Assembly (NCBI GenBank): GCA_043799105.1
Contig: JAZDOB010000010.1
Coordinates: 10,516 to 74,515, forward strand
Reading direction: 5' to 3'
Length of the DNA: 64,000 bases
DNA from: Candidatus Zambryskiibacteriota bacterium
GTDB lineage: Bacteria; Patescibacteriota; Minisyncoccia; Phycocordibacterales; WO2-35-19
Position numbers and translations under genes: made by a program. A model generated the notes under the pieces. The model saw only the letters and a program-made list of their open reading frames with translations. It was not told where the DNA came from and did not search any database. Position 1 is the stretch's first letter. Each line of letters starts with the position of its first letter. Shown piece after piece: positions 15,422 to 64,000 of this stretch.

Positions 15422-16327
15422 TTAAGGAAAAGATTTTAAAAAATATCTTGGGTTTATATGGAGATCGTCTGAAACATTTGCGCTTAATGATTCTTTTCGT
15501 ATCCACAAAAGTCTTTCTAACCCATCCAGTACAGCTTTTTTGTTAATTTTTGTGATGGCAGAGTAAACAACTTGAACAAAAATTCTTGGGACAGGAAAAA
15601 AAATAGGGGTTTTTTTCTTAAATTTACATATTCTTTCCACCACCTGTTTTAGTGATAAATTTTCTGGTCCCGTAAGTGTGTATGTTTTACCATAAGAGAG
15701 TTTATTATCAACAGTAGCTAAAATGCCAGCTCGCACGTCATCTATATGTATTGGAGCGATGGTTGTATTTTTGTCAACAGCATAAGGAACGACGAAACTT
15801 TTTTCAACGAGAGAAACTATTTTTCCAAGACCTTCTGCTCTAGTAAAACTTTCATCATATGCTTCACCAACCCGGATAATTGTGTAAGGGATTTTGCTAT
15901 TTTTAGTATATTCTTCGGCTTTTTCTTTTGATGCTCCATATGCTCCACACTGGCTTCCTATTGTTCGAGTGCTAATATAAATAAATTGTTTGGCATTTTT
16001 TTCTTCGGCTATTTTAACAAGTTTTTTTGTGCCAAGAGTATTTATTTTCTCATAATTTTTTGGGTTATTAGTGTGGGATATGGAAGCAAGATGAATAACA
16101 ATATCTATGGAGGGTATTTCTGTTTGCCAGGCTGAAATATCTTCCATTCCTCCGTTGATTACTTTAATTTCTCCAGATGTTTTTAGCGGTTTATTATGTT
16201 TAAGAACCGTAATGTCGTACACATTTTTTAGTTTATCTATTAAACCCTCGCCCAGAAAACTGCTTGCTCCAGTTATGAATATTTTCTTCCTCATTTTTTT
16301 AGAATTCTTGATTCTCTCATTCGCCAA
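15422..16327 (-). CDS. NAD(P)-dependent epimerase/dehydratase (SDR family)
   Basis: Rossmann motif KIFITGASSFLGEGLIDKL. Length and pattern match nucleotide-sugar epimerase/reductase enzymes. Confidence 0.75.
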   Translation of the reverse strand: MANERIKNSKKMRKKIFITGASSFLGEGLIDKLKNVYDITVLKHNKPLKTSGEIKVINGGMEDISAWQTEIPSIDIVIHLASISHTNNPKNYEKINTLGTKKLVKIAEEKNAKQFIYISTRTIGSQCGAYGASKEKAEEYTKNSKIPYTIIRVGEAYDESFTRAEGLGKIVSLVEKSFVVPYAVDKNTTIAPIHIDDVRAGILATVDNKLSYGKTYTLTGPENLSLKQVVERICKFKKKTPIFFPVPRIFVQVVYSAITKINKKAVLDGLERLLWIRKESLSANVSDDLHINPRYFLKSFP

Positions 16328-17022
16328 ACAATAATATTTTTTATAAACTCAATATTGGCTTTAAGGGAGATAAAAGAAGGACGCTCCGGATTTTTTTTAA
16401 ATACAACTTCCATTTCGCCGATACGAAAGTTATTTCGACTAGCTTTTATCATAATCTCGGCATCAATAAACCAGTCATTGGATTCCAGATTTAATTTGTT
16501 ATAGGCCTCACGTGTAAAAATTTTAGGCTTGCCGTTTATATCATTTGAAATAATTCCGGGAAATAGTAATTGCATAATTCCATTAAATATGCGGGAAATA
16601 AATTTGCGATATATCCCATCACCACGTAAAATTCGTTTTCCTTTACACAGATCTAGTTTCTCGTCCACAAGTTTTTTGTAAAGTTTTGGTATGTCTTCTG
16701 GGGGCATTTGATCGTCACCGTCAATTACGGCAATAGTGCTACCCGTGGCCGCTTCCAGTCCGGAGCGCATATCCCAGCTCATGCCGTGTGTCTTATCTGT
16801 TTTTTTCTTAATGACCGATATCGTTCTGTCTTCGCTTATTGCTATTTGGCGGACTACCTCTGGAGTAATGTCACCCTTATTGGCCCAGAAGTTGCCAACA
16901 AGAACTATTTCATAATCCAAGTTATTGTTCTGCAGAATTTTTGCTACTTTTTGGTAGAATACTTTGGCGAAGTTACCAGCTTTATAACACAATATAACCA
17001 CCGAGATTTTGGGAATTGTCAT
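16291..17022 (-). CDS. GT2 glycosyltransferase
   Basis: ISVVILCYKAGNFAKV…IAVIDGDDQMPPEDI (GT2 DxD). Confidence 0.75.
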   Translation of the reverse strand: MTIPKISVVILCYKAGNFAKVFYQKVAKILQNNNLDYEIVLVGNFWANKGDITPEVVRQIAISEDRTISVIKKKTDKTHGMSWDMRSGLEAATGSTIAVIDGDDQMPPEDIPKLYKKLVDEKLDLCKGKRILRGDGIYRKFISRIFNGIMQLLFPGIISNDINGKPKIFTREAYNKLNLESNDWFIDAEIMIKASRNNFRIGEMEVVFKKNPERPSFISLKANIEFIKNIIVWRMRESRILKK

Positions 17023-17113
17023 ATATATTAAAGTAATATATCATGAATTCATACAAATTTCATATCTAAAAAATTATCTTTATATAAAGTTGTTTTTATG
17101 GTAGCCTTTTTGT

Positions 17114-18841
17114 ATGAATTTTGAATTTTTACGTAGAAAAGAGCTGGCTTGGTTCATAGTTTTACTGGCCATTTTTGCGGTTTTACGTTTACCGGCAATT
17201 CATTCTCCCTATCATCAGGATGAATATAAGTGGGTGCAATATGCTCATCCAGAAATAACACTGCCCGGTACTGTGCCACATCCGCCATTAACGGAATTTA
17301 TTTATGCCAAAACTCTCGGGCCCCTTTTGGGCGATAGCAATTTTCGTTTTATTCCCTTGATTTTTAGCGTTGCCAACCTGTTTCTGATCTTTTATTTAGC
17401 CAAAATCATTTTTGACCCATTGGACAAGCTCAGAGCAAGCAAGACTGCATTTTGGACGGCTTTTCTTTTTGTCACTTCTTTTTACTCCGTTCTCGCATCA
17501 CTGATGGTTGATGTTGATGGGGCAATTATGCCGATGTTTTTCTTAATTATGGCGATTGGATATTTTAAGCTTAAGACTTCGGGTTTTGAGCTTAGAGAAG
17601 GAAATTGGAAGTGGTTGGTCTTGTTAATTGTTGGGGCCGTGGGCGGGTTCTTGATTAAAGTCAGTGCTGTTCTTCCCATTTGTGCACTCGCTTTGGATTT
17701 TGCCATAGAGAAGGGTGCGTTTAGAGATAAAAGAAAAATAATAAAATATATCGTCTTTAGTTTTTTGGGCGCGGTTAGTTTGGTTGCGGTTTTGTTTTTG
17801 GCAAGATTTGTTTTTCCATTCTTTAATCTGGAATACTCATTTAATTATTGGAAACATTTTGCAAATTCATCCGGTTTTTTTGATAGGGGATGGCTCCAGA
17901 CGTTTATTCAGTTTGTAAAGGCCATTCTTTATACCTCGCCACTCTTACTTTTGCCGGCATTTTTCATAGACAAAGAAATTTGGCGAAAACTTAGACCCTT
18001 CTTTTTCTTTATTTTCATTGGTCTTATGTTCTACCTTTTTGTTTTTGATTTTTCCATTGGAGCGTTGGACAGGTATTTCCAATTTTTAGTGGTACCCCTT
18101 TGTATTATTTCAGGGGCTGTATTTGCAAAGATATTTAGGAACAAAGAAATAAAGCTGAAGAAAGAAGATTTTATTACGGTATTTATAATAACAATTTCAA
18201 TTTTTGCTCTTCAGTTTTTCAATCACACCGTACCACCTCTTTACCCAAAAACAGAATGGCTAAGCCGACTTCTTTCTCTCGAATGGAATTTCCTTTTTCC
18301 TTTTACTGGTGGATCCGGACCTCTGGGTTTTTATATTTCTTTTATTTTTATGGCTCTGTCATACATTTGCTCTGCCGTTCTTGCGGTTGCAATATGTATC
18401 AAAAAAGAGCTGAAACATAAAGTTTTTGCTGTAATTTTAATCATAGGCCTAGTTTATAATTTCTCTTTTATTGAAGAATATCTTTTTGGCAAAATAAACG
18501 GTTCAGCTCCGAAATTACTTTACGATGTCACGGAATTTATAAAAAACGATCCAGATATAAAAGCTGTGACAGTTTATAATGATAACGGTGGCTATGAAAT
18601 AATGAAAATAGGGAAGTACAGAAGAAGGCTTTATACCAGCCCGGCTTTTGATGTAAATCAGAAAATATCCACATTGAACGCTACCAAAGATTATTATCTG
18701 GAAATAAATATTCCACGGATAGACCCAAACAGTGTTTTCCGGAAATATTTTGATTCGTGCAATGTCGCTTATAGAGAAACAGATAAAAGTATTTCTGCGA
18801 CAGTTTATGATTGTAGAAATGCTCCTGATATAAAAAATTGA
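17114..18841 (+). CDS. GT-C fold membrane glycosyltransferase (GT39/ArnT-like), paralog B
   Basis: ≥10 TM helices (…HSPYHQDEYKWVQYA… loop) followed by a soluble C-terminal domain. Paralogous start region shared with 13914. Confidence 0.55.
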   Translation: MNFEFLRRKELAWFIVLLAIFAVLRLPAIHSPYHQDEYKWVQYAHPEITLPGTVPHPPLTEFIYAKTLGPLLGDSNFRFIPLIFSVANLFLIFYLAKIIFDPLDKLRASKTAFWTAFLFVTSFYSVLASLMVDVDGAIMPMFFLIMAIGYFKLKTSGFELREGNWKWLVLLIVGAVGGFLIKVSAVLPICALALDFAIEKGAFRDKRKIIKYIVFSFLGAVSLVAVLFLARFVFPFFNLEYSFNYWKHFANSSGFFDRGWLQTFIQFVKAILYTSPLLLLPAFFIDKEIWRKLRPFFFFIFIGLMFYLFVFDFSIGALDRYFQFLVVPLCIISGAVFAKIFRNKEIKLKKEDFITVFIITISIFALQFFNHTVPPLYPKTEWLSRLLSLEWNFLFPFTGGSGPLGFYISFIFMALSYICSAVLAVAICIKKELKHKVFAVILIIGLVYNFSFIEEYLFGKINGSAPKLLYDVTEFIKNDPDIKAVTVYNDNGGYEIMKIGKYRRRLYTSPAFDVNQKISTLNATKDYYLEINIPRIDPNSVFRKYFDSCNVAYRETDKSISATVYDCRNAPDIKN

Positions 18842-30978: not shown

Positions 30979-31007
30979 TTGACACCCTATGACACTTCTC
31001 ATATACT
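30979..31007 (+). promoter_or_regulatory. Sigma70-like promoter TTGACA-17nt-TATACT driving the HTH gene (near-leaderless)
   Basis: TTGACA at 30979-30984 and TATACT at 31002-31007 with a 17-nt spacer. The ATG at 31018 is ~11 nt past the -10. Confidence 0.5.
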
Positions 31008-31017
31008 TAATGCGACT

Positions 31018-31266
31018 ATGACTGATGAAATAAAATCGCATGCTGTTTATACTACAGGAGAGGCAGAAAAGCTTCTAAAAGTGAGCAATAGCACTATGAA
31101 AAGGCTACTCAAGCATGGTATACTGCGTGCCAATAAAGTAGGCAGACAGTATCGTATTTTAGGCAAAGAGATTTTAAGAGTTATTTCGCCACAACTTGAG
31201 GGAAAAGCTATCGAATCGTATCTGGGTTTGAAACACAAAGTTGTCGATAAAATTAATAAATGGTAA
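31018..31266 (+). CDS. Small HTH DNA-binding protein, excisionase/HTH_17 (MerR-superfamily) type
   Basis: MTDEIKSHAVYTTGEAEKLLKVSNSTMKRLLKHGILRANKVGRQYRILGKEI (GRxYRI motif). The ORF-track start at 30928 (TTG) would overlap the divergent gene start and run through the promoter, so the ATG at 31018 is preferred. Stop overlaps the ABC gene start. Confidence 0.5.
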   Translation: MTDEIKSHAVYTTGEAEKLLKVSNSTMKRLLKHGILRANKVGRQYRILGKEILRVISPQLEGKAIESYLGLKHKVVDKINKW

Positions 31267-34104: not shown

Positions 34105-35205
34105 ATGATTCCATATGGCAAACAATCAATAGATGGCAAAGATATAAGAGCAGTTGAATCTGTCCTTAAATCGGATTGGCTCACTCAAGGGCCAAAAATT
34201 GCTGAATTTGAAAATGCCCTGGCTGATTATTGCGGAGCAAAGTTTGCAGTAGCTGTTTCTTCCGGCACTGTCGCACTTCATATCGCTTATCTTGCTTCTG
34301 GTCTGAAAGCTGGAGACGAAGTTGTCACAACCCCAAACACTTTTGTGGCTACCTCCAATATGCTTTTAGCCGTAGGTGCCAAACCAGTTTTTTGCGATAT
34401 TCACTCTGATACCTACAATATTGACGAAACAAAAATTGAAAAACTGATTACAAAAAAAACCAGAGCCATTGCGCCGGTGCATTTTGCAGGGATCCCTTGT
34501 GAAATGGACAAAATAATGAATATAGCAAGAAGACACAAACTCATTGTTATTGAAGATGCCTGCCATGCTTTAGGTGCAAAATATAAAAATAAAAAAATTG
34601 GCAGTATAGGCCATATGACCGTACTCAGTTTCCATCCGGTTAAATCAATTACCACTGGCGAAGGCGGGGCGATTTTAACCGACAATAAAAAATATTATGA
34701 GAGATTGAAATTATTAAGAAGCCATGGGATTTACAAAGATAAAAACGGAAAGAATATTATGACTGAAATGGGCTACAACTACAGGATAACTGATATACAG
34801 GCTTCCCTTGGCATTACTCAATTGAAAAAACTAGACAACTTCATTAAAAAAAGGAAACAAATTGTTTCTTGGTATAAGGAATTTTTACAGGACTGCAAGG
34901 AGATTATTCTTCCGGTGAACAATCCCGATTCTGCAAACCACATTTATATTATCAGAACTAAAAAAATAACGGACAGATTACCGCTCTATAATTTTCTGCG
35001 CAACGCAGGCGTTGGGGTCAATTTCCATTATCCAGCGGTTTATTCTCATCCTTATTACCAAAAGATTGGATATGCCGGTTTGAAATTGCCAATGGAGGAG
35101 GCTTATCAAAATTCTTGCGTCACTCTGCCTTGCTTCCCCGGTTTGTCTAGGGCTTTAATTAAACGAATAGCAAAATCAATAAATTCATTTTATGAATCCC
35201 GTTAG
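34105..35205 (+). CDS. DegT/DnrJ/EryC1/StrS-family PLP sugar aminotransferase (PseC/LegC-like)
   Basis: MIPYGKQSIDGKDIRAVESVLKSDWLTQGPKIAEFENALADYCGAKFAVAVSSGTVALHIA…SFHPVKSITTGEGG…. Confidence 0.8.
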   Translation: MIPYGKQSIDGKDIRAVESVLKSDWLTQGPKIAEFENALADYCGAKFAVAVSSGTVALHIAYLASGLKAGDEVVTTPNTFVATSNMLLAVGAKPVFCDIHSDTYNIDETKIEKLITKKTRAIAPVHFAGIPCEMDKIMNIARRHKLIVIEDACHALGAKYKNKKIGSIGHMTVLSFHPVKSITTGEGGAILTDNKKYYERLKLLRSHGIYKDKNGKNIMTEMGYNYRITDIQASLGITQLKKLDNFIKKRKQIVSWYKEFLQDCKEIILPVNNPDSANHIYIIRTKKITDRLPLYNFLRNAGVGVNFHYPAVYSHPYYQKIGYAGLKLPMEEAYQNSCVTLPCFPGLSRALIKRIAKSINSFYESR

Positions 35206-35241
35206 AAGTTAAGAGCTAATGGAATAAATAAAAACAAAAAT

Positions 35242-36681
35242 ATGAAAACTTCTAACGGGATGAAAAAAATTAAAATTTTAGCGATAAATGTTTGTCTGCG
35301 GCCAAGTAAGCCGCAAATTATGTTTCCTCTCGGCCTGGCCTATGTCTTAAGCGCCGTTCACCGAGCGGGCTATGATTTTGAATTGCTTGACTTGGATAAG
35401 GATAGAAAAAGCGACAAGGAGATTGAAAAGTTCTTGGCAGAAAAGGAGTTTGATGTAGTCGCTTTCGGTTGCATCGTGACTGGCTATAAAATGATAAAAA
35501 ATCTGAGCCGGATGGTAAGAAAAGCTAATAAGAAAGCCGTTATTATAGCCGGAAATTCCGTGGCCGACTCAATCCCGCGCATTCTTTTGTCAAAAACCGA
35601 AGTTGATGTGGCGGTAATAGGGGAAGGGGAGATAACTATTGTTGAAGTTTTAGATAGAATAAAAAATGGCAAGGCGCTTGACGGGGTTAAAGGAATTTGG
35701 TTTAAGCGCGGTGGAAAAATTTTTCAAAACCCAAACAGAGAAGCTATCAAAGATATAGATTCTATACCTTCACCCGTTTGGGATTTATTTGATATGGAAG
35801 CTTACATTAAAGGTTTCCAAGAGTTGATTAACGAACCTTTGCCTATGCCTAGAGAGCAGATTCGCTCTTTTTTGGTGAATGCGGCGAGAGGATGTCCGTT
35901 TCGTTGCACTTTTTGCTATCAAGTTTTTCAACATTATAATTACCGGCATCGTGGAGTGGATTCTATAATCAAAGAAATAAAAAAGTTGCAAAAAAAGTAC
36001 AAGATTAACTATATACTTTTTTGTGACGATCTATCTTTCCCTTCAAAGACTTTGCTTAAGGAATTTGTTGACAGAGTATTAAAAGAGAAATTAAAATTTT
36101 TTTGGACAGCTTCTTGTCGATCTGATTTATTCAATTCGGAAGAAGACGTGCCGTTGTTGAAACGAATAAAAAAATCAGGTTGCGAAGGCTTTGGTTTTTC
36201 TTTGGAATCGGCCAATAAAGAAATTCTAAAAGCCATGAATAAACATTTAGTTCCGGAAAATTTTGTCAGGCAAAAAAAATTGCTGGACAAGGCGGGCATA
36301 TCTTCATGGACAAGCTTAGTGCTTGGGTATCCAGAAGAAACAAAAAAAACCATAAAAGAGACTATGGATCTTTGTTACAAGTGCGACACCTATCCCAGTT
36401 CGGGTTATTTATTGCCCCAACCCGGAACGCCGATGTATAAGTATATATTTGATAAAGGCATAGCCAAAGACGAGGAAAAATATTTATTATCGCTTGGTGA
36501 TCGGCAAGATTTTAGGATTAATCTAACCAAGATGTCGGCAGAGGAATTTCAGGCAGAGGTAAAATATCACTTGTACCGGATTTCGAAAAAATTAAAGCTC
36601 GGTCTGGGTGAAGACAATCTTTTAAAGACGACCTCTTATAAAGGCATAACAGCAAAAAGAAGAGAAGAAGATAATAAATAA
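35242..36681 (+). CDS. B12-binding (class B) radical SAM enzyme, paralog 4
   Basis: KILAINVCLRPSKPQIMFPLGLAYVLSAVHRAGYDFELLDL. Radical SAM motif ARGCPFRCTFCYQ. Confidence 0.8.
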   Translation: MKTSNGMKKIKILAINVCLRPSKPQIMFPLGLAYVLSAVHRAGYDFELLDLDKDRKSDKEIEKFLAEKEFDVVAFGCIVTGYKMIKNLSRMVRKANKKAVIIAGNSVADSIPRILLSKTEVDVAVIGEGEITIVEVLDRIKNGKALDGVKGIWFKRGGKIFQNPNREAIKDIDSIPSPVWDLFDMEAYIKGFQELINEPLPMPREQIRSFLVNAARGCPFRCTFCYQVFQHYNYRHRGVDSIIKEIKKLQKKYKINYILFCDDLSFPSKTLLKEFVDRVLKEKLKFFWTASCRSDLFNSEEDVPLLKRIKKSGCEGFGFSLESANKEILKAMNKHLVPENFVRQKKLLDKAGISSWTSLVLGYPEETKKTIKETMDLCYKCDTYPSSGYLLPQPGTPMYKYIFDKGIAKDEEKYLLSLGDRQDFRINLTKMSAEEFQAEVKYHLYRISKKLKLGLGEDNLLKTTSYKGITAKRREEDNK

Positions 36682-50508: not shown

Positions 50509-50622
50509 AATAAAGGTTTCTTGAGCCTTATCCACAAATGGTTTGCACAAAATCGTAGAATATGCTATACTTATAAGGTGAGTGTGGTGAAGCAATTTCC
50601 ACACAAATGAATGTCTGCGAAA

Positions 50623-50652
50623 GCGCCACCTAACGGTGGCATTTTCGTTTTT
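50623..50652 (+). terminator. Intrinsic terminator downstream of O-antigen-ligase gene
   Basis: gcgccacc-taac-ggtggc followed by attttcgttttt. Confidence 0.55.
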
Positions 50653-50677
50653 CAAAAATTTTTGTATACTTAAATAT

Positions 50678-50763: not shown

Positions 50764-51099
50764 AGAAATTATTTTTGATATTTTTTTTATAAATTTTTTC
50801 TGAAAATAAAAAAGTTATCCACATATTTTGTAAAAAATCATTTACTTAAAATTTTTTTAGAGCGATAATTAGAACAAGGTCGATCGTCGCGTGAGATTTC
50901 TGAAAGAAATTTTTTACGCGACAAGCGCGCTTAAAAATAATCTCATTCTAATCCCGATGTTCTTCGGGAAAGGAATCTCACTAGAATGGCAAAAAAGAAA
51001 AAAGCATCAAAGAAGAAAAGAGCATAACAGCTTTTTCCTGCTTAACAAAGATTCCGCCTCTCGGCGGAGTTTTTGTTTTTGTGATAATATAAGCCTATT

Positions 51100-57388: not shown

Positions 57389-59341
57389 ATGGCGCGATCA
57401 ATGGTTTTGGGGAACGGGAATACTTTGGTCTGTCTGGATAAGTTCGGACAGGTCAGGGATTTTTATTTTCCATATGTCGGACAGGAAAATCATATCGGTT
57501 CCAACCAACTGCACAAGATTGGAGTTTTTGTTGATGGCGAAACGCATTGGATAGATAATGGCGAATGGAATGTAGATATAAGATTTGAGAAAAGCACCAT
57601 GGTCTCCAAGATAGAAGCCACAAATGAAAAGGCCAAGATTTTTATGGTCTCGACCGATGTTGTTTATAATGAAAAGAATATTTTTTTGAGAAGAATCACA
57701 CTGACCAACAAGGATCACAGAGCGCGCGATATCAGGATATTTTTCAACCAGCAGTTTAAGATAGGGGATACCAACCATGCGGATACGGCATATTTTTCCA
57801 GCACTATTGAGTCCATCATTCATTACAAAGGCAGGAGAGTTTTTTTGGTTGGCGGTATGGGAGGAAACAACAAGCCGTTTGATGATTACAGCATAGGTTT
57901 TTGCGGAGCTGAGGGTAAAGAAGGCACCTGGAAAGATGCCGAGGATGGAGCTTTGTCTAAAAATTCCATTGAACACGGAGTGGTAGATTCGGTTATCGGC
58001 TGGCAGAGGAATATTCCGGCGGACGGTTCCATGACTTTATATTATTGGGTGATGGCTGGTGAGACTTACAAAGAAGTCTGTGAACTCCTTGAATATGTTT
58101 TTGAAAAGACACCCGAGCACCTAATTGAGTCCACTCAAGATTTTTGGAAAGCTTGGACGGGGCAAGTTGAGTTGTCTTTACCCGGACTGTCTGAAAGAGC
58201 CAAGAATTTGTTTTATGATTCTCTTTTGGTGATGAGGGCGCATTCTGATGACAGGGGGGGAATTTTGGCTTCGGCTGATTCTGGCAATGTGCAATATGGC
58301 GGGGATACTTATGGATACATTTGGCCCAGAGATGCCTGTTTTACGGCCTGGAGTTTTGATATGGCGGGGTTTTATGATGTTTCCAAGAGATTTTACGCTT
58401 TTGCCAACGATATTTTGACCGAGGAAGGTTATGTTTTGCACAAATACCAACCGGACCATTCTTTGGGGAGCTCGTGGCACCCCTGGGTCAAGGATGGGAA
58501 GAGACAGCTCGCTATACAAGAAGATGAGACGGCCGTTCTCCTTGTTGGACTTTGGGAGCATTATATAAGAGCCAAAGATCTGGAATTTATAGAAAGTATT
58601 TATAATAGTTTTATAAAGAAAGCGGCCGACTTCATGATTCATTACAAAGATATTCATTCGGGATTGCCCCTACCCAGTTATGATTTGTGGGAGGAACAAT
58701 TTGGAGTTTCGCCCTTTACTGCCTCTTTAGTCTATGGAGGTTTGATATCGGCTCACAATTTTGCTAAAACTTTGGGTAAAGAGGAGGATGCCAGCAGATT
58801 CTATGGGGAAGCGGAGACTTTGCGTAAGGCCATTATGGCTCTACTCTGGAATGAAGAAGGAAAATATTTTTTTAAACTAAACGGAGACAAATTAGAGAAA
58901 AATATCAATTTGGATGCCAGTAGTTTTTATGGGCCGTTTCGTTTTGGGGTGATATCCGCTGATGACCCGAGGATGAAAGAGGCATTTAAGATATTGAATG
59001 CCAAACTGAGCAGTGGTATAAGCATAGGGGGACTCGCGCGTTATGAAGGTGATAAATATTCTCACGTTGAAGGCGGGTCGGTTGGCAATCCGTGGTTTGT
59101 GACTACGTTGTGGTTCACTCAATATAAAATAGTGACGGCCAACTCTTTGGCGGAATTGGAGGAAGCGGCTAAAGATATAGAGTGGGTGGCAAAATTTGCA
59201 AGGTCAGGTATGCTTTCCGAACAACTCAACCCGTACACCGGCGAGCCTCTGTCAGCGACCCCTCTCACCTGGAGTCATGCCGAATACGTGCGTACTGTCA
59301 TAGAATATGATAAAAAGATTAAACAATGGCAAAAGATATAA
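57389..59341 (+). CDS. Glycoside hydrolase family 15-like (glucoamylase/glucodextranase, archaeal-type)
   Basis: N-terminal …LGNGNTLVCLDKFGQVRDFYFPYVG…, central …DTYGYIWPRDA… and C-terminal (α/α)6-barrel pattern. Confidence 0.75.
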   Translation: MARSMVLGNGNTLVCLDKFGQVRDFYFPYVGQENHIGSNQLHKIGVFVDGETHWIDNGEWNVDIRFEKSTMVSKIEATNEKAKIFMVSTDVVYNEKNIFLRRITLTNKDHRARDIRIFFNQQFKIGDTNHADTAYFSSTIESIIHYKGRRVFLVGGMGGNNKPFDDYSIGFCGAEGKEGTWKDAEDGALSKNSIEHGVVDSVIGWQRNIPADGSMTLYYWVMAGETYKEVCELLEYVFEKTPEHLIESTQDFWKAWTGQVELSLPGLSERAKNLFYDSLLVMRAHSDDRGGILASADSGNVQYGGDTYGYIWPRDACFTAWSFDMAGFYDVSKRFYAFANDILTEEGYVLHKYQPDHSLGSSWHPWVKDGKRQLAIQEDETAVLLVGLWEHYIRAKDLEFIESIYNSFIKKAADFMIHYKDIHSGLPLPSYDLWEEQFGVSPFTASLVYGGLISAHNFAKTLGKEEDASRFYGEAETLRKAIMALLWNEEGKYFFKLNGDKLEKNINLDASSFYGPFRFGVISADDPRMKEAFKILNAKLSSGISIGGLARYEGDKYSHVEGGSVGNPWFVTTLWFTQYKIVTANSLAELEEAAKDIEWVAKFARSGMLSEQLNPYTGEPLSATPLTWSHAEYVRTVIEYDKKIKQWQKI

Positions 59342-60741
59342 GTTGGAAAACAACCATAGGCCTAGAAATACATGCGGAGCTCAAAACAAAAACAAAGATG
59401 TTTTGTTCGTGCAAAAATGACACGGATGAAAAAAGGCCCAATGTAAATATTTGCCCTATTTGTATGGGGCACCCCGGCACGCTACCCGTCATAAACAAAG
59501 AGGCCGTGAAGAATGTCCTAAAAGTCGGGCTTGCGCTGGGGGGAAAACTGGCTGATTTTACAGAATTTGACCGCAAAAATTATTTTTACCCGGATATTCC
59601 GAAGGGTTATCAGATTAGCCAATACAAACATCCTCTGGTTTCGGGAGGAGAGCTTTTGGGAGTAAAAATAACGAGGGTTCACTTGGAAGAAGATACGGCG
59701 CGTTCGAGCCACGGAATGGGGGACACAGATGATTCGTCCCTTCTTGATTTCAACAGGGCCGGAGTGCCGCTTATGGAGCTTGTGACGGAGCCGGTAATAC
59801 ATTCGTCCGAAGAAGTCGTCAAGTTTGGCGAAGAATTGCAGTTGCTTTTGCAGTATCTGGGGGTGGCGGAGGCCAATATGGAAAAAGGGGAAATGAGGCT
59901 TGAGGCCAATATCTCAGTCAGCAATACCGATAAACTGGGCACAAAAGTAGAAATTAAAAACCTTAACTCCTTCCGGTCGGCGGAAAAAGCCATAGAGTTT
60001 GAAATAAAGAGGCAAATAGAAGCTCTAAAAAACGGCGAAAAAATAAGCCAAGAGACCAGAGGTTGGGACGACAAGAAGCAGGTTACCTTTTCTCAGAGGT
60101 CCAAAGAAGACTCGCACGACTACAGATACTTCCCTGATCCCGACTTGCCAAAACTTAAATTAAGCGAGACAGCCGAGTTTGACGAAAAAACATTGCGTAC
60201 CCAAATACACGAAACTCCTAAAGAAAAAAGGGAGAGATTAAAGAAAGATTACAATATAAAAGAGAGCGATATTGATTTTTATATTTCAAATATTAAACTG
60301 GGCTCTCTGTTTGAAAAAGCTTCACTCGGCCTCAGCCCCAGAGATTTTCAACTGCTCTCAAACTACATAGTGAGCGACATTGCCAGTTTGGGGGAGAGAG
60401 GGTTTTCCATAAATCCAGAGAATCTCTCGTCCCTGATTTCTATGTTTATAAAAGGGGAGGTGTCTTCACGGGGGGCGAAGGATATTCTTTCCAAAATGGC
60501 GGAGAGTGATAGGAACCCAAAAACAATAGCAGAAGAAGAAGGGCTGTTCCAAAAAAGCGATGAGGAAGAACTTGAAAAAGTTGCAAATAAAATAATATCC
60601 GAAAACACAGAAGCTGTTTTAGAGTATAAAAACGGCAAAGTTTCAGCTCTGCAATTTCTGGTTGGGCAGGGTATGAAGGCTACCGGAGGCTCGGCCAATC
60701 CTCAAATATTGAAGGCTATTTTTGAGAAACTTATCGGCTAA
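59326..60741 (+). CDS. gatB: Asp-tRNA(Asn)/Glu-tRNA(Gln) amidotransferase subunit B
   Basis: MAKDISWKTTIGLEIHAELKTKTKMFCSC… canonical GatB N-terminus; …YFPDPDLP…. Confidence 0.95.
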   Translation: MAKDISWKTTIGLEIHAELKTKTKMFCSCKNDTDEKRPNVNICPICMGHPGTLPVINKEAVKNVLKVGLALGGKLADFTEFDRKNYFYPDIPKGYQISQYKHPLVSGGELLGVKITRVHLEEDTARSSHGMGDTDDSSLLDFNRAGVPLMELVTEPVIHSSEEVVKFGEELQLLLQYLGVAEANMEKGEMRLEANISVSNTDKLGTKVEIKNLNSFRSAEKAIEFEIKRQIEALKNGEKISQETRGWDDKKQVTFSQRSKEDSHDYRYFPDPDLPKLKLSETAEFDEKTLRTQIHETPKEKRERLKKDYNIKESDIDFYISNIKLGSLFEKASLGLSPRDFQLLSNYIVSDIASLGERGFSINPENLSSLISMFIKGEVSSRGAKDILSKMAESDRNPKTIAEEEGLFQKSDEEELEKVANKIISENTEAVLEYKNGKVSALQFLVGQGMKATGGSANPQILKAIFEKLIG

Positions 60742-60745
60742 AGGG

Positions 60746-61393
60746 TTACAGGAGGGGTTCTTTCGCTGTACTGGTAGACACAAAATCCCTATATTTTGCC
60801 TGGTCTTTAAACTGTCTTAATACAATATCGGTAGAGATCAAATCGCCCCACCTGTTTAGACCTATGTAGTCCTGGTAGCTCGACCAGGGGTACTTGTCGT
60901 AGGTGTCTCCCCAGGCGCCGATCTCTTTCGGATTTTTGTGTATGTATGCTGATAAGTGCAAAAGCTGATTGTTGTTTTTAACATGTACCGCTCCGAACGG
61001 CCCGTGAAATACGTGACCCTTTTTGTTGTACTTGGCATTGAAATATTTACTGTAGGCGGTAAGTACTCGGTGCATATAAACGGAAAGAATACCGTCTTCC
61101 AAGTTTTGTATCAAAATATGGAAATGGTTGGGCATGAGGGCAAAGGCAACCAATTCAACATTTCTCTTTTTGAGCATGTCATCAATCTTATCTTTCTTTG
61201 TGCTGAATGAGTTTTTTTCAAGGAAGCTTTTGGTGTACCAAGATATGTTGTATATCCGGGTGGGGGATTGGAAATGGGTAATAAGAAATATAAATCTGGC
61301 GCGATCTTTATCGTCTAAAAATATTTTTTCTTTATTAACGCCTCTGCCGAAGAGATGATAATATTCTTTTTCTGCAAAATTTTCGTATCTCAT
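60746..61393 (-). CDS. HuH-Y1 transposase-like protein (IS200/IS605 TnpA / REP-associated tyrosine transposase, RAYT-like)
   Basis: HuH motif …MPNHFHILIQN… plus downstream Tyr-containing region (…VLTAYSKYFNAKY…). Convergent with and abutting gatB. Confidence 0.55.
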   Translation of the reverse strand: MRYENFAEKEYYHLFGRGVNKEKIFLDDKDRARFIFLITHFQSPTRIYNISWYTKSFLEKNSFSTKKDKIDDMLKKRNVELVAFALMPNHFHILIQNLEDGILSVYMHRVLTAYSKYFNAKYNKKGHVFHGPFGAVHVKNNNQLLHLSAYIHKNPKEIGAWGDTYDKYPWSSYQDYIGLNRWGDLISTDIVLRQFKDQAKYRDFVSTSTAKEPLL

Positions 61394-61461
61394 GATGTTT
61401 TTGGTATGGCAGTAGTATAGCAGGAGCTCAAAAGTGCCACTATTGGGTGTGTGGATAACTA

Positions 61462-61501
61462 CTAAACGCTCAGCGTCTAATATTAGACGCTGAGCGTTTA
61501 G
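61462..61501. repeat. Perfect 40-nt palindrome (20+20) upstream of the transposase-like gene
   Basis: ctaaacgctcagcgtctaat|attagacgctgagcgtttag is exactly self-complementary. Confidence 0.85.
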
Positions 61502-61556
61502 TATAGATTTTGGAGTGGGCGTATGGTGTAGTATGGAGATCTTTGGGGGTTGATTA

Positions 61557-61612
61557 AGGTCGAATTTTGGCTGGGTCGGGGTTAATTTTGGTCAGGTCGG
61601 AGTTTTATTAGG
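61557..61612. repeat. Three degenerate tandem ~19-21-bp repeats (RGGTCGRRGTTWATTTTGG)
   Basis: aggtcgaattttgg / gggtcggggttaattttgg / aggtcggagttttattagg in direct succession. Confidence 0.45.
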
Positions 61613-61836
61613 ATCGAACTGAGGAGGGGGTCAGACAAAGCTGGGGCGGGGGAGCCTGATTTAAGTTATTCCAATTTGATTTTAATATTTGAGACGAGAC
61701 CGGGTAAATAATAAAGTATAAAATAAGGATATAAAATTAGAATGAATAAAAAAATAATCACCATTAGGGTGATTATTTTGATTTGACTGGTTTTGTTGAA
61801 ATGGGGTATATATATGAGCAAGATCTATAATTTTGT

Positions 61837-62136
61837 TTATGATTTTTCCTCAATATCCGGGTTTCGTTCATTTATATTAACATCTCCCGAGGCGTGCTCT
61901 TCTTCCAGATGGCGGACGGCCAGTTTGCGAATCTCATCTTTTTTCTTTTTTACAATGAAAATATTACTCTCAATCATTTCTATGACTTTGTCAATGTCTT
62001 CTATTTTATAGACCCTATAGTTATTGAAGGGATGGCGGTGAGCTTTGAGCTTACCGGACTTGTCCCAATTTCTCAGAGTGATCTTGGACATACCTAATAT
62101 TTTAGCGGCGTCTTTGATTGTTATGTATGTGTTCAT
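61837..62136 (-). CDS. MerR-family HTH transcriptional regulator (small)
   Basis: ITIKDAAKILGMSKITLRNWDKSGKLKAHRHPFNNYRVYKIEDIDKV: MerR N-terminal HTH pattern. Confidence 0.55.
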   Translation of the reverse strand: MNTYITIKDAAKILGMSKITLRNWDKSGKLKAHRHPFNNYRVYKIEDIDKVIEMIESNIFIVKKKKDEIRKLAVRHLEEEHASGDVNINERNPDIEEKS

Positions 62137-62477
62137 TTTATTGGTTATTTTATTGTTTATTACTGAAAATTAAACACTACCAAACCTATATAAACATTAT
62201 TATATCACTATGTATGAATATAAAAGTTTAATAATGTGGATAACTCGCTGTACATAATTTTTTTAACACATTATAATAATTATAGTATTTTGATTAATTT
62301 TGAGTGCAATTATTGGTTTGGACGGTATTTGGGGGTCTTATAAAGATAAAACAACAATCAAACAAAGCAGACCGGAATGAGATAAAAATATATTAAAAAA
62401 GTTTAGAAAAAAATAAAAATTTCGATACTAAAAAATTAAATTTTTTATATTGATTTATCCCCAACTTTTTTATTCAT

Positions 62478-62560
62478 CTCGTCTAGCCGAGATTGTATAA
62501 TATCCTTAATGGATAAGGATATTAATCTCCACGGCAAGAAATATATCTCGGCTAGACGAG
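62478..62560 (+). promoter_or_regulatory. Nested palindromic operator-like element overlapping TATAAT (-10) and the start codon of the downstream large gene
   Basis: Outer perfect 16-nt arms ctcgtctagccgagat (62478-62493) / atctcggctagacgag (62545-62560). Inner perfect 11-nt arms taatatcctta (62498-62508) / taaggatatta (62514-62524) with loop ATGGA. TATAAT at 62496-62501. Confidence 0.5.
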
Positions 62561-64000
62561 CATCTGAAATCACGGGATACACTAGCGATTACGTTGGACA
62601 ATTATGTCGCGCAAAAAAGATTGATTCGAAGCTCATTGGACGCAGTTGGTATGTCTTAAAAAAAGACATTTTAAAGCACAAAAATTCTAATACCAAGTCT
62701 AGCGAAGAAATTTCAAGAAAACCTTTATTTGTCTCAAGTAAAGATTTTGGTAAAAAGAAGAAAACGGTAAATAAAACGAGAAGTAAAATACTTGAACCGG
62801 TAGTATTTAGATCCGGACTAAATACCAAAAAAATCGCTTATATCAAAGACGATTCGCCGCTTTTCCCCGTTATATCAAGGAAATTTGATTACGAAAGCAC
62901 AAAATACATTGCTTTAGAAAGTGTAGAGAAATCGTTAAATAAGCCCAGACGCAGTCCGTTTGTTGAGAAATTTGCCATAAATACGGCCGTAGTTTCTTTC
63001 GCTCTTCTCTTTGTTTTTGTTTATGTTTTCGGTGAAGAAAAGATTTCCAAGTTAATGCCTTATAAGTTTTTGGAAAATGCAGGCCAAGAAATTTCTTTAT
63101 TATACGGACCTTATATGAACGATGTTCGTGCCAGTTTTAATAAATTTGAACAAAATATTTCAAGCGTAAATCAGAGTGGTGGCCAGCTTGCTTCGGCCAT
63201 ATTTTCTGCGAACACCTGGAACTCGGTTGCCGGTTGGGTAAAAGATACGGCGTATAAAATAGTAAAGCCGTGGTTGAAAGATGATGTGGTTTTGACGACC
63301 TCATCTAACCCCCTTAATCCCCCTTACATTAAGGGGGAGACAGGAAGAGCGATTACAATGAACATCGTGGGGGCTAGCAAGGATTATGTGGATTCGCAAA
63401 TATCGGAATTGAAAAAATATTTTCTAACCCTACCCTTCACTTCCTCTATTGCTCCAAATGTAAACAGATATTACATAACAAACCAAAACGACAGAATTGT
63501 AGATTTAATAAACCAATCCTCGGGAACTTCAAGCGGTGGCGGTACTTCAAATGTTGCCAATCTTTCCGACTTGTCTGACCTCACCCTAACTTCCACCACT
63601 TATGGCGACGTTTTGATATATGACGGAAGCAAGTGGGTGAATACTGCCACCTCAACTTTGGGAATCACAGGCACAGGCGCTTCCTTCGGTCAGGCGTGGG
63701 AGGTAAATGCGGATGGATACCTTGCTCCGACCACGACAATTACGACTCTATTTGGAGATGGATTTCTATCAACAGCTTCCTCAACTATCGTCGGCAACGC
63801 GACTACCACCGGCTCTATGGGGGTCGGAGCTCTTTACATAAACAACGATTATATAACGGATCTTGTGGGGTCGGGACTTTCTCTTACGGGAGGAGTACTT
63901 TCGTCAACCGGGGGTACTGGCAATGTCTCAACATCCACAGTTCCAAATATTGGTGAACTAGCATATTGGACTGGAGACGGAACTCCTTCAACTCTCGGCT
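62509..64000 (+). CDS. Large protein (≥497 aa, 3'-truncated by window end): N-terminal excisionase-type HTH, Lys-rich linker, one TM helix, Ser/Thr/Gly-rich fibre/adhesin-like extracellular region
   Basis: Not in the supplied ORF track because there is no stop codon: frame 1 is open from ATG 62509 to nt 64000 (in-frame TAA at 62437-62439 upstream). N-terminus …KYISARRASEITGYTSDYVGQLCRAKKIDSKLIGRSWYVLKKDI (HTH_17-like). TM …FAINTAVVSFALLFVFVYVFG… Then …SSGTSSGGGTSNVANLSDLSDLTLTSTTYGDVLIYDGSKWVNTATSTLGITGTG…. Confidence 0.7.
   Translation, partial: MDKDINLHGKKYISARRASEITGYTSDYVGQLCRAKKIDSKLIGRSWYVLKKDILKHKNSNTKSSEEISRKPLFVSSKDFGKKKKTVNKTRSKILEPVVFRSGLNTKKIAYIKDDSPLFPVISRKFDYESTKYIALESVEKSLNKPRRSPFVEKFAINTAVVSFALLFVFVYVFGEEKISKLMPYKFLENAGQEISLLYGPYMNDVRASFNKFEQNISSVNQSGGQLASAIFSANTWNSVAGWVKDTAYKIVKPWLKDDVVLTTSSNPLNPPYIKGETGRAITMNIVGASKDYVDSQISELKKYFLTLPFTSSIAPNVNRYYITNQNDRIVDLINQSSGTSSGGGTSNVANLSDLSDLTLTSTTYGDVLIYDGSKWVNTATSTLGITGTGASFGQAWEVNADGYLAPTTTITTLFGDGFLSTASSTIVGNATTTGSMGVGALYINNDYITDLVGSGLSLTGGVLSSTGGTGNVSTSTVPNIGELAYWTGDGTPSTLG

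Follow-up and report, generated by a model that had tools for sequence, protein, structure and literature searches.

A candidate promoter-operator module with a predicted leaderless start at the gene of a membrane-anchored winged-helix protein in Candidatus Zambryskiibacteriota

The stretch of DNA analysed here (the window) comprises 64,000 nucleotides of a Candidatus Zambryskiibacteriota contig (JAZDOB010000010.1, positions 10,516 to 74,515), and the present study concerns the start region of a large open reading frame (ORF) that begins at ATG 62509 and extends past the window end at 64000. The ORF is laid out as a 64-aa N-terminal domain, predicted to be a winged helix-turn-helix (wHTH), followed by a basic linker, one transmembrane (TM) helix and a Ser/Thr/Gly-rich region, and its homologues, which were found exclusively in Patescibacteria/Paceibacteria with a Zambryskibacteria metagenome-assembled genome as the best locus, show the same order of helix-turn-helix (HTH), basic linker, TM helix and a large Ser/Thr/Gly-rich region. 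From 59326 to 64000 the gene order reads gatB, a Y1/HUH transposase-like gene (minus strand), a MerR-like gene (minus strand) and the divergent wHTH-TM gene (plus strand), as it does in 64 of 80 related loci. These loci, to which the L numbers below refer, represent one locus per GTDB species of the Paceibacteria, which belong to the candidate phyla radiation (CPR); they were collected with the peptide DY[VI]GQLCR from the recognition helix, which does not overlap the repeat described below, and were aligned with the start codon as anchor. The 21 closest genomes (the close clade) were used for the pairing alignment, and codons were counted in the 80 loci plus the window (81 loci).

Around the start codon lie two nested inverted repeats (IRs). 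An earlier sequence-only reading had described both of them, with the loop ATGGA, the TATAAT hexamer and the ATG, and all of these are present exactly where it had placed them (Table 1). The outer 16-nt repeat, whose right arm runs through codons 13-17 and one base into codon 18, is far above chance: a set of 100 first-order Markov simulations run on the window gave on average 0.01 perfect 16-mer IRs within 120 nt, and a single simulation had any. Perfect 11-mer IRs with a loop of at most 10 nt had a simulated mean of 0.52 and were met at least once in 32 of the 100 simulations; since about 0.5 such repeats are expected per window, the inner repeat is unremarkable alone, and it is the nesting that is remarkable. 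Each outer arm is itself part of a near-palindrome (ATCTCG-TCTAGC-CGAGAT at 62476-62493 and ATCTCG-GCTAGA-CGAGCA at 62545-62562), and one may just as well regard the 16-nt repeat as an 18-bp palindromic site present in two copies, with 69 bp from centre to centre. We call these copies O1 and O2; the perfect 16-nt repeat would then exist because both are the same site in opposite orientation. The conserved unit is an 18-bp palindrome that occurs twice, and not the nested 16 + 11 hairpin that the sequence-only reading had described.

Table 1. Features of the wHTH-TM locus and DnaA-box-like sites in the window (window coordinates).
Feature	Position	Strand	Remarks
Outer IR, arms CTCGTCTAGCCGAGAT / ATCTCGGCTAGACGAG	62478-62493 / 62545-62560		16/16 complementary; arms 51 nt apart
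Inner IR, arms TAATATCCTTA / TAAGGATATTA	62498-62508 / 62514-62524		11/11 complementary; loop ATGGA holds ATG 62509
Candidate operator O1, ATCTCGTCTAGCCGAGAT (ATCTCG-N6-CGAGAT)	62476-62493	.	Holds left arm of 16-nt IR; ends 2 nt before the -10
Candidate operator O2, ATCTCGGCTAGACGAGCA	62545-62562	.	Codons 13-18 (I S A R R A); holds right arm of 16-nt IR; synonymous-site constraint
Upstream box TTATCCCCA, DnaA-box-like	62455-62463	+	TTATCCACA in most relatives; present in 72/80 related loci
-10 hexamer TATAAT	62496-62501	+	Ends 7 nt before ATG 62509
Start codon, likely transcription start (leaderless)	62509-62511	+	Sole start candidate
Predicted MerR/Xis-type winged HTH domain	62509-62700	+	Residues 1-64; AlphaFold2 model, fold matches
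Predicted TM helix (FAINTAVVSFALLFVFVYVFG)	62971-63033	+	Residues 155-175; from translation
99-aa MerR-type HTH gene, divergent, syntenic, alternative binder	61837-62136	-	Pfam MerR, 4e-11
TTATCCACA box of the MerR-like promoter	62235-62243	-	Conserved as TTATCCACATTATTAAAC in relatives; -10 TATAAT at 62199-62204
Further DnaA-box-like sites	50528-50536; 50815-50823	+	
Further DnaA-box-like site	61450-61458	-	

Comparison among the relatives argues for selection on these sites as DNA. In the close clade the arms of O1 are invariant and the palindrome ends 1-2 nt before the -10 hexamer; a full O1-type palindrome, either at about -33 or at -80 to -100 and then upstream of the box, is found in 27 loci, and L038, L042 and L057 carry the perfect 18-mer ATCTCGGCTAGCCGAGAT. 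What other clades have instead is either just a CCGAGAT half-site next to the -10, or a full palindrome that precedes the box, or nothing at these places, and the motif accompanies the wHTH-TM gene family everywhere. At the position of O2, ATCTCGG occupies codons 13-15 in nearly all loci and is usually followed by CGAG at codon 17. The codon choice is striking: codon 13 is ATC in 71 of the 80 loci that encode Ile there, against 28% of Ile codons in the background, TCG accounts for 72 of the 80 Ser codons at position 14 (12% in the background), and codon 17 is CGA in 50 of 81 loci (AGA in 4, CGT in 2; background 16.5%), with the flanking Tyr-12 and Ala-15 codons at background usage. In four proteins the domain is repeated in tandem, and the second copy encodes the same peptide YIS[AT][KR]RASEI in other codons (e.g., ATATCCACCAAGCGT, ATCTCTACAAAACGG); hence the constraint is tied to the place near the promoter and not to the peptide. 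The motif ATCTCG-N6-CGAGAT recurs once more, as O3, at +350 to +440 in about 20 relatives, where it is read as I-S-x-x-R-D in some genomes and as S-R-x-x-E-[IL] in others; the use of two reading frames indicates that the DNA is conserved and not the peptide. The window itself holds O1 and O2 only. At the level of the alignments, O2 is thus selected as a nucleotide sequence, its codons doubling as a candidate protein-binding site, and the operator-like character that the sequence-only reading had seen in the repeat is borne out by arms that are invariant, palindromic and held at synonymous sites.

The motif is also specific in position, as 132 of the 237 CCGAGAT/ATCTCGG heptamers in 250 kb fall between -100 and +50 of the start. 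Their arrangement varies (inverted at a 4-nt or ~60-nt spacing, or direct at 24 bp), and so does the O1-O2 spacing between clades. No further copies of the operator with up to 3 mismatches were found in the window beyond this locus, and the other CCGAGAT heptamers of the window, one of which lies in the coding sequence (CDS) of a GT2 glycosyltransferase, look incidental. A metagenome scan for ATCTCGGNNNNCCGAGAT gave no regulon information among the matches listed: nearly all of these were random and in high-GC contigs, the family gene stood beside the palindrome only in L087 and L145, and L156 is a low-GC candidate by sequence alone. Two further arrangements may be recorded here. In the loci of the L020 type (L021, L022, L031, L034, L043, L048, L049 and L061) an extra ATCTCGG lies at -260 to -390, in intergenic DNA and directly after a -10-like element (GGCTTAnAATAnAAT-N-ATCTCGGATG), and the clade of L039, L049, L053, L056, L059 and L075 has a second ATCTCGG at +60, as a direct repeat 24 bp after O2.

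How the two sites vary speaks to the question of operator or hairpin. The core of 7-8 pairs (CCGAGAT with ATCTCGG) never varies in the 21-genome alignment and the arms do not covary; being invariant, these pairs are uninformative on pairing. Roughly one sequence in two can form the outer nine pairs, where some double changes are seen, and the centre of O1 and O2 varies, drifting towards GCTAGC. Invariant arms around a variable centre are the pattern expected of a palindrome contacted by protein, whereas an RNA stem would usually covary over such divergence. In L007, O1 and O2 are even 16/16 identical as direct repeats, which keeps the identity of the site and abolishes the potential to form a hairpin.

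The inner repeat has a different history. It is perfect in the window genome only (10/11 in L001), its helix pairs in 55% of the cells across the 21 genomes, and alignment pair 37-53 is formed in the window alone. A 5-bp core, CCTTA/TAAGG, which lies between the -10 and the ATG on one side and in codons 2-4 (M-D-K) on the other, is common to the window, L001 and L002; L003 and L004 retain CTTA/TAAG only, and members that start with GTG are without the inner palindrome. The perfect 11 bp of the window go back to a substitution of Ala by Asp in codon 4 (GCT to GAT), which happens to pair with a pre-existing T. Judged from this comparison, the inner repeat is a recent, lineage-specific extension of a 5-bp complement.

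With regard to the promoter, the TATAAT hexamer is very probably a real -10 element. A box of the form TTATCC[A/C]CA or TTGTCC[A/C]CA precedes it in 72 of the 80 loci, in 57 of these at a gap of 30-32 nt and overall at about 29-33 nt, while position and sequence of the -10 itself are nearly invariant (alignments A2 and A4). Within the close clade the hexamer sits 6-8 nt before an ATG or GTG start; TTG is never used by the close clade or the homologues, and more remote clades have leaders of ~15 nt. The 370-nt intergenic region contains two conserved islands, one for each divergent promoter, and the box-to-(-10) spacing is repeated at the neighbouring MerR-like and HUH transposase-like promoters, at which leader lengths differ. 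ATG 62509 is the sole ATG, GTG or TTG between an in-frame stop at 62452 and the HTH domain, and it aligns with the N-termini of the homologues (M-x8-GKKYISA). A transcription start at 62508-62509, and hence a leaderless mRNA, is likely because the geometry from box to -10 to start is fixed among relatives. The sequence-only reading had arrived at the same TATAAT and at the same leaderless start, in part from the lack of a Shine-Dalgarno (SD) sequence. The gene does lack one; however, this is no evidence for a leaderless mRNA, as only 7 of 56 window genes have an SD-like 4-mer in the last 22 nt upstream, so that the idea stands on the conserved geometry and not on the missing SD. Leaderless or SD-independent initiation in fact seems to be common in this organism.

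The intergenic alignment revealed no conserved upstream promoter able to transcribe O1. A strong plus-strand promoter-like site at 62249-62277, which would give a long leader, was discarded, as it is not conserved in 16 relatives. At the standalone HTH gene at 31018, for which the sequence-only reading had pointed out a similar layout, TTGACA (30979-30984), a 17-nt spacer, TATACT (31002-31007) and 10 nt up to ATG 31018 are indeed found. Elsewhere in the window, -10-like hexamers (TATAAT, TATGAT, TATACT) end 6-7 nt before the start of the operon-head ORFs 2429, 48310 and 54198, the first of which was listed as ORF 2426 and likely starts at ATG 2429 rather than at TTG 2426. For promoters of the CPR, and for leaderless transcripts or the TTATCCACA box among Patescibacteria, our literature search found nothing relevant.

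A PDB sequence search with the profile of the N-terminal domain gave no meaningful match, and therefore a fold search was used. The AlphaFold2 model of the domain has a predicted local distance difference test score (pLDDT) of 89.6, and its best matches in a Foldseek search of the PDB are the Xis protein of mycobacteriophage Pukovnik, BldC, RacA, the DNA-binding domain of pSK1 Par and RdfS, with a TM score of ~0.6 and a root-mean-square deviation of 1.7-2.4 Å. The model thus supports a small MerR-like/excisionase winged helix, that is, a DNA-binding fold, in agreement with the HTH that the sequence-only reading had recognised in the translation. In one relative, L006, an in-frame TAA at codon 11 breaks the family ORF (GGT AAA TAA TAT ATC TCG), with box, O1, -10 and O2 all intact; it could reflect a pseudogene, an assembly error or recoding.

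From our point of view, the locus is best read, with moderate confidence, as a promoter-operator module that consists of the box, the -10, a leaderless start and two 18-bp operators bound by a winged-helix protein of the MerR/Xis type. Transcription would be driven by TTATCCCCA together with TATAAT and would most likely start at the A of ATG 62509 or immediately beside it. The two copies of the site, whose ideal form would be ATCTCGGCTAGCCGAGAT, would flank this start, with O1 filling the spacer to the -10 and O2 lying within the coding sequence, and the protein would bind both as double-stranded DNA and thereby control initiation or early elongation. Repression is the probable outcome, as the spacer would be occupied and a roadblock would stand at +45. 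The preferred binder is the gene's own N-terminal domain, which could reach variably arranged sites from a ~100-aa linker below the membrane. The varied heptamer arrangements are easier to reconcile with small Xis- or BldC-like units, tethered by a long flexible linker, than with a rigid dimer, and BldC has been found to assemble on repeat arrays (PMC5859096).

Several observations weigh against this interpretation. About 20 loci of the family are without any upstream CGAGAT. The distance of 69 bp between O1 and O2 corresponds to 6.6 helical turns, which is out of phase for a simple repression loop, and the Pfam HTH_17 match of the window protein is weak (E 0.004) and under the gathering score. 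The recognition helices of both candidate binders, the protein's own domain and the MerR-like neighbour, are invariant, partly by construction given the search peptide DY[VI]GQLCR, and a comparison of this kind does not assign the binder. Moreover, in the subclade of the window the six central bases of the two sites tend to agree once one site is inverted: 10 of 27 loci have matches at 5 or more of 6 positions, whereas the permuted mean is 5.5 and 10 was reached in 9 of 2000 permutations; at one central position three pair types (T:A, C:G, A:T) occur and track the third base of an Ala codon. Part of this central matching appears to come from the shared preference for GCTAGC. The remainder may stem from template-switch homogenisation between quasi-palindromes or from some selection for pairing, and it could reflect selection for a hairpin.

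As to who binds, autoregulation as put forward by the sequence-only reading has the operator-like site and the DNA-binding fold on its side, but the divergent 99-aa MerR-like protein is equally available, and we therefore favour the gene's own domain only modestly. It is conceivable, if in our judgement doubtful, that the locus is instead under classical MerR control, in which the 99-aa protein would bind the O1 dyad in an over-long spacer and activate or repress by DNA distortion, with the HTH of the surface protein idle. The neighbour is a bona fide MerR-type HTH gene that lies divergently upstream in 64 of the 80 loci, and its product is highly conserved: it is up to 91% identical between genomes, its recognition helix LTLRNWD is invariant, its identity between genomes exceeds that of the surface protein's N-terminus, and its sequence matches in the PDB are MerR-like regulators, CarA and CueR. 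An 18-bp dyad that ends 2 nt before the -10 is moreover in the canonical position of a MerR operator, and a T-rich TTATTC 20 nt upstream could act as -35. This hexamer is, however, only T-rich and not conserved as TTGACA, and no conserved -35 is visible; the two promoters are ~250 nt apart with no shared operator, that of the MerR-like gene being without ATCTCG/CGAGAT, and the 99-aa protein is without an effector domain. MerR control would also leave O2, O3, the half-sites beside the -10 and the direct heptamer repeats 24 bp apart unexplained, and both sites are retained in L038, L040 and L057, where no MerR-like gene is adjacent to the wHTH-TM gene, namely O1 as well as O2.

Three further explanations were weighed. 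The gene could be transcribed from further upstream and the nested hairpin act as an RNA switch that hides the start codon until it is opened, and the fold of 62470-62570 is indeed very stable (-39 kcal/mol, z = -6.7; z = -5.3 with O1 included). Both-sided changes in the outer stem number 25 cells against 16.6 in shuffles, 2 of 500 shuffles gave a higher covariation score, at least 8 loci have central bases that match when one site is inverted, and the window has other IRs that span a start codon (35196-35261 and 17046-17120). The left arms, however, which precede the conserved -10 or overlap it, lie upstream of the likely transcription start, so that the hairpin idea contradicts the leaderless idea with which the sequence-only reading had combined it, and the leaderless 5' end (62509-62608) folds at -14.2 kcal/mol with z = +1.1, no better than shuffles. 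O1 is upstream of a -10 whose distance to the box is fixed as at other promoters, the upstream gene is divergent and no conserved promoter precedes O1; the core arms never covary, the inner helix is formed in little more than half of the cells, the partner motif of other clades is upstream of the box, absent or a direct repeat, and an Rfam scan of the whole window at gathering thresholds gave 0 matches. We hence regard RNA occlusion of the start codon as unlikely. A DNA-level structure or concerted evolution, in which a cruciform, a hairpin or template-switch correction keeps the arms complementary without a protein reading that complementarity, has for it that the central 6 nt match locus-specifically, with a mirrored deviation (T at position 7 of O1, A at position 12 of O2, the latter forced by the Arg codon), and that changes in O1 track synonymous changes of O2 in the window's subclade. 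As it explains neither the class-wide invariance of the arms, nor the constraint on O2 in loci without O1, nor O3, we consider it a little less probable still as a replacement, although it could complement the operator model. An invertible promoter that provides phase variation, with the IRs as recombination sites, seems hardly credible. The repeats do flank the -10 and start codon of a surface protein gene, and a Y1/HUH transposase-like gene is 1.1 kb away; but the arms are only 51 bp apart, far less than in known invertible segments, the neighbourhood contains no invertase, a separate conserved 44-nt palindrome belongs to the HUH gene, and the orientation is the same in 80 of 80 loci. An element of the repetitive extragenic palindrome type with its associated transposase (REP/RAYT) was likewise rejected, there being a single locus in 64 kb, one copy of which is intragenic, and a Y1-like gene with a different palindrome.

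The upstream box is not confined to this gene. Perfect TTATCCACA boxes (TTATCCCCA at the focal gene) occur in intergenic DNA only and are always directed at the downstream gene, which at the five sites in the window (Table 1) is a putative small RNA, secA, the HUH-like gene, the MerR-like gene and the wHTH-TM gene. Four of these sites have a -10-like hexamer 29-32 nt further on, and at 50815 the -10-like GATAAT comes after ~40 nt; the 121 boxes in 247 kb of related loci have a like spacing peak. TTATCCACA is the high-affinity DnaA box, to which the upstream box is identical at 9/9 positions in most relatives and at 8/9 in the window; what sets it apart is that each promoter has a single box, directed at the gene, with the -10 at a constant distance of 29-33 nt. 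A reading as oriC was rejected, as the cumulative GC skew rises monotonically and the boxes are single, gene-oriented and at fixed spacing to the -10. To us, the box looks like a promoter-upstream element for some factor, perhaps DnaA. Beside these sites, the ~60-nt leader of the MerR-like gene has conserved blocks (TATAAACATTACTA), and the box at 50528 and its TATACT -10 are followed by ~100 nt (~50566-50670, plus strand) that end in a terminator-like hairpin GCCACCTAACGGTGGC and a T-run, possibly a small RNA or a short ORF, for which there is no Rfam match.

Other palindromes of the window deserve mention as well. A perfect 44-nt palindrome, TACTAAACGCTCAGCGTCTAAT|ATTAGACGCTGAGCGTTTAGTA (61460-61503; -34 kcal/mol, z = -10.8), with ACGCTnAGCGT in each arm, adjoins the TTATCCACA box of the Y1/HUH transposase-like gene (60746-61393, minus strand). 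It is seen also in L002, L006, L007, L009, L010, L015, L003 and L028, being identical in five relatives, with compensatory arm changes in L015 and L003 and a wholly different palindromic sequence in L028, and may serve the HUH protein as a hairpin substrate or as an operator; as the HUH gene is syntenic, it is probably not mobile. A perfect 15-nt IR (35196-35210 / 35247-35261; -20.7 kcal/mol, z = -6.7) spans the junction of two genes: it takes in the stop codon of ORF 34105-35205, the 36-nt gap and the start codon (ATG 35242) of the B12-binding radical-SAM gene that follows, and since both arms would share one operon transcript, occlusion of that start codon as RNA is plausible. Finally, a perfect 12-nt IR (17046-17057 / 17109-17120; RNA fold z = -4.2), whose right arm holds ATG 17114, was seen in the intergenic DNA that separates a GT2 glycosyltransferase gene (16291-17022, minus strand) from the divergent ORF 17114-18841.

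The module proposed here is previously undescribed and conceptually classical, and no single family is assigned to it. Its signature among the relatives is unusually clear, given the constraint on O2 at synonymous sites, the negative control within some of the proteins and the two frames of O3. Its closest textbook analogue is lambda cI at PRM, where a leaderless mRNA encodes an HTH protein and palindromic operators of ~17 bp overlap the protein's own promoter and act jointly. A leaderless HTH gene with palindromic operators on its own promoter is predicted here too, but the product is a giant membrane-anchored surface protein and not a soluble repressor, and one operator lies inside the CDS of the DNA-binding domain. 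Auxiliary operators in the first structural gene are known from lac (O2 at +401) and gal (OI at +53.5), and the combination of a promoter operator with O2 at +36, and with O3 at ~+400 in relatives, resembles lac O1/O2/O3 and gal OE/OI; the regulator here is, however, not of the LacI/GalR type and the 69-bp spacing is a non-integral number of helical turns, and any looping would be hypothetical. At MerR-type promoters such as merR/merT and cueR/copA, a dyad operator lies in a 19-20 bp spacer and the regulator has a coiled coil and an effector domain. The present locus shares with them an 18-bp dyad that fills the spacer to the -10 and a divergent MerR-type HTH gene next door, but it differs by non-overlapping promoters, the lack of a shared operator or effector domain, extra sites in the CDS and an unrecognisable -35. 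Structurally, BldC, RacA and Xis match best, being small wHTH units that read a short motif and assemble on variable repeat arrays (PMC5859096 for BldC). RacA, in addition, tethers DNA to a membrane-associated site. Against this stand the identity of 8-18%, the fusion of the domain to a TM helix and an extracellular region, and the unrelated motif CCGAGAT. ToxR, CadC and TcpP are membrane-bound one-component regulators that reach only DNA near the membrane, and they share the cytoplasmic N-terminal DNA-binding domain, the single TM helix and the large extracytoplasmic part, but have OmpR-type winged helices and small sensor domains, and no homology to them was found.

One could speculate, at rather long odds, that the MerR-like protein and the giant membrane-anchored wHTH surface protein form a conserved two-gene module of the Paceibacteria, in which the cytoplasmic domain binds up to three operators in its own promoter and CDS and couples extracellular host or surface sensing, or co-translational membrane insertion (transertion), to its own transcription, while the DnaA-box-like element ties a set of promoters, including those of the secA, HUH and MerR-like genes, to DnaA or another global factor.

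Almost no promoters, operators or regulators have been defined experimentally in the CPR/Patescibacteria. The promoter architecture described here, with the TTATCCACA box, ~30 nt, a -10 and a probable leaderless start, is conserved across the whole class, and the locus offers a natural case of codons that double as a putative protein-binding site, with an internal control in the second domain copy that is without the motif. As the motif ATCTCG-N6-CGAGAT is sharply defined and both candidate binders are small and could be produced recombinantly, the locus would provide a testable entry into the regulation of a conserved and probably host-facing surface protein.

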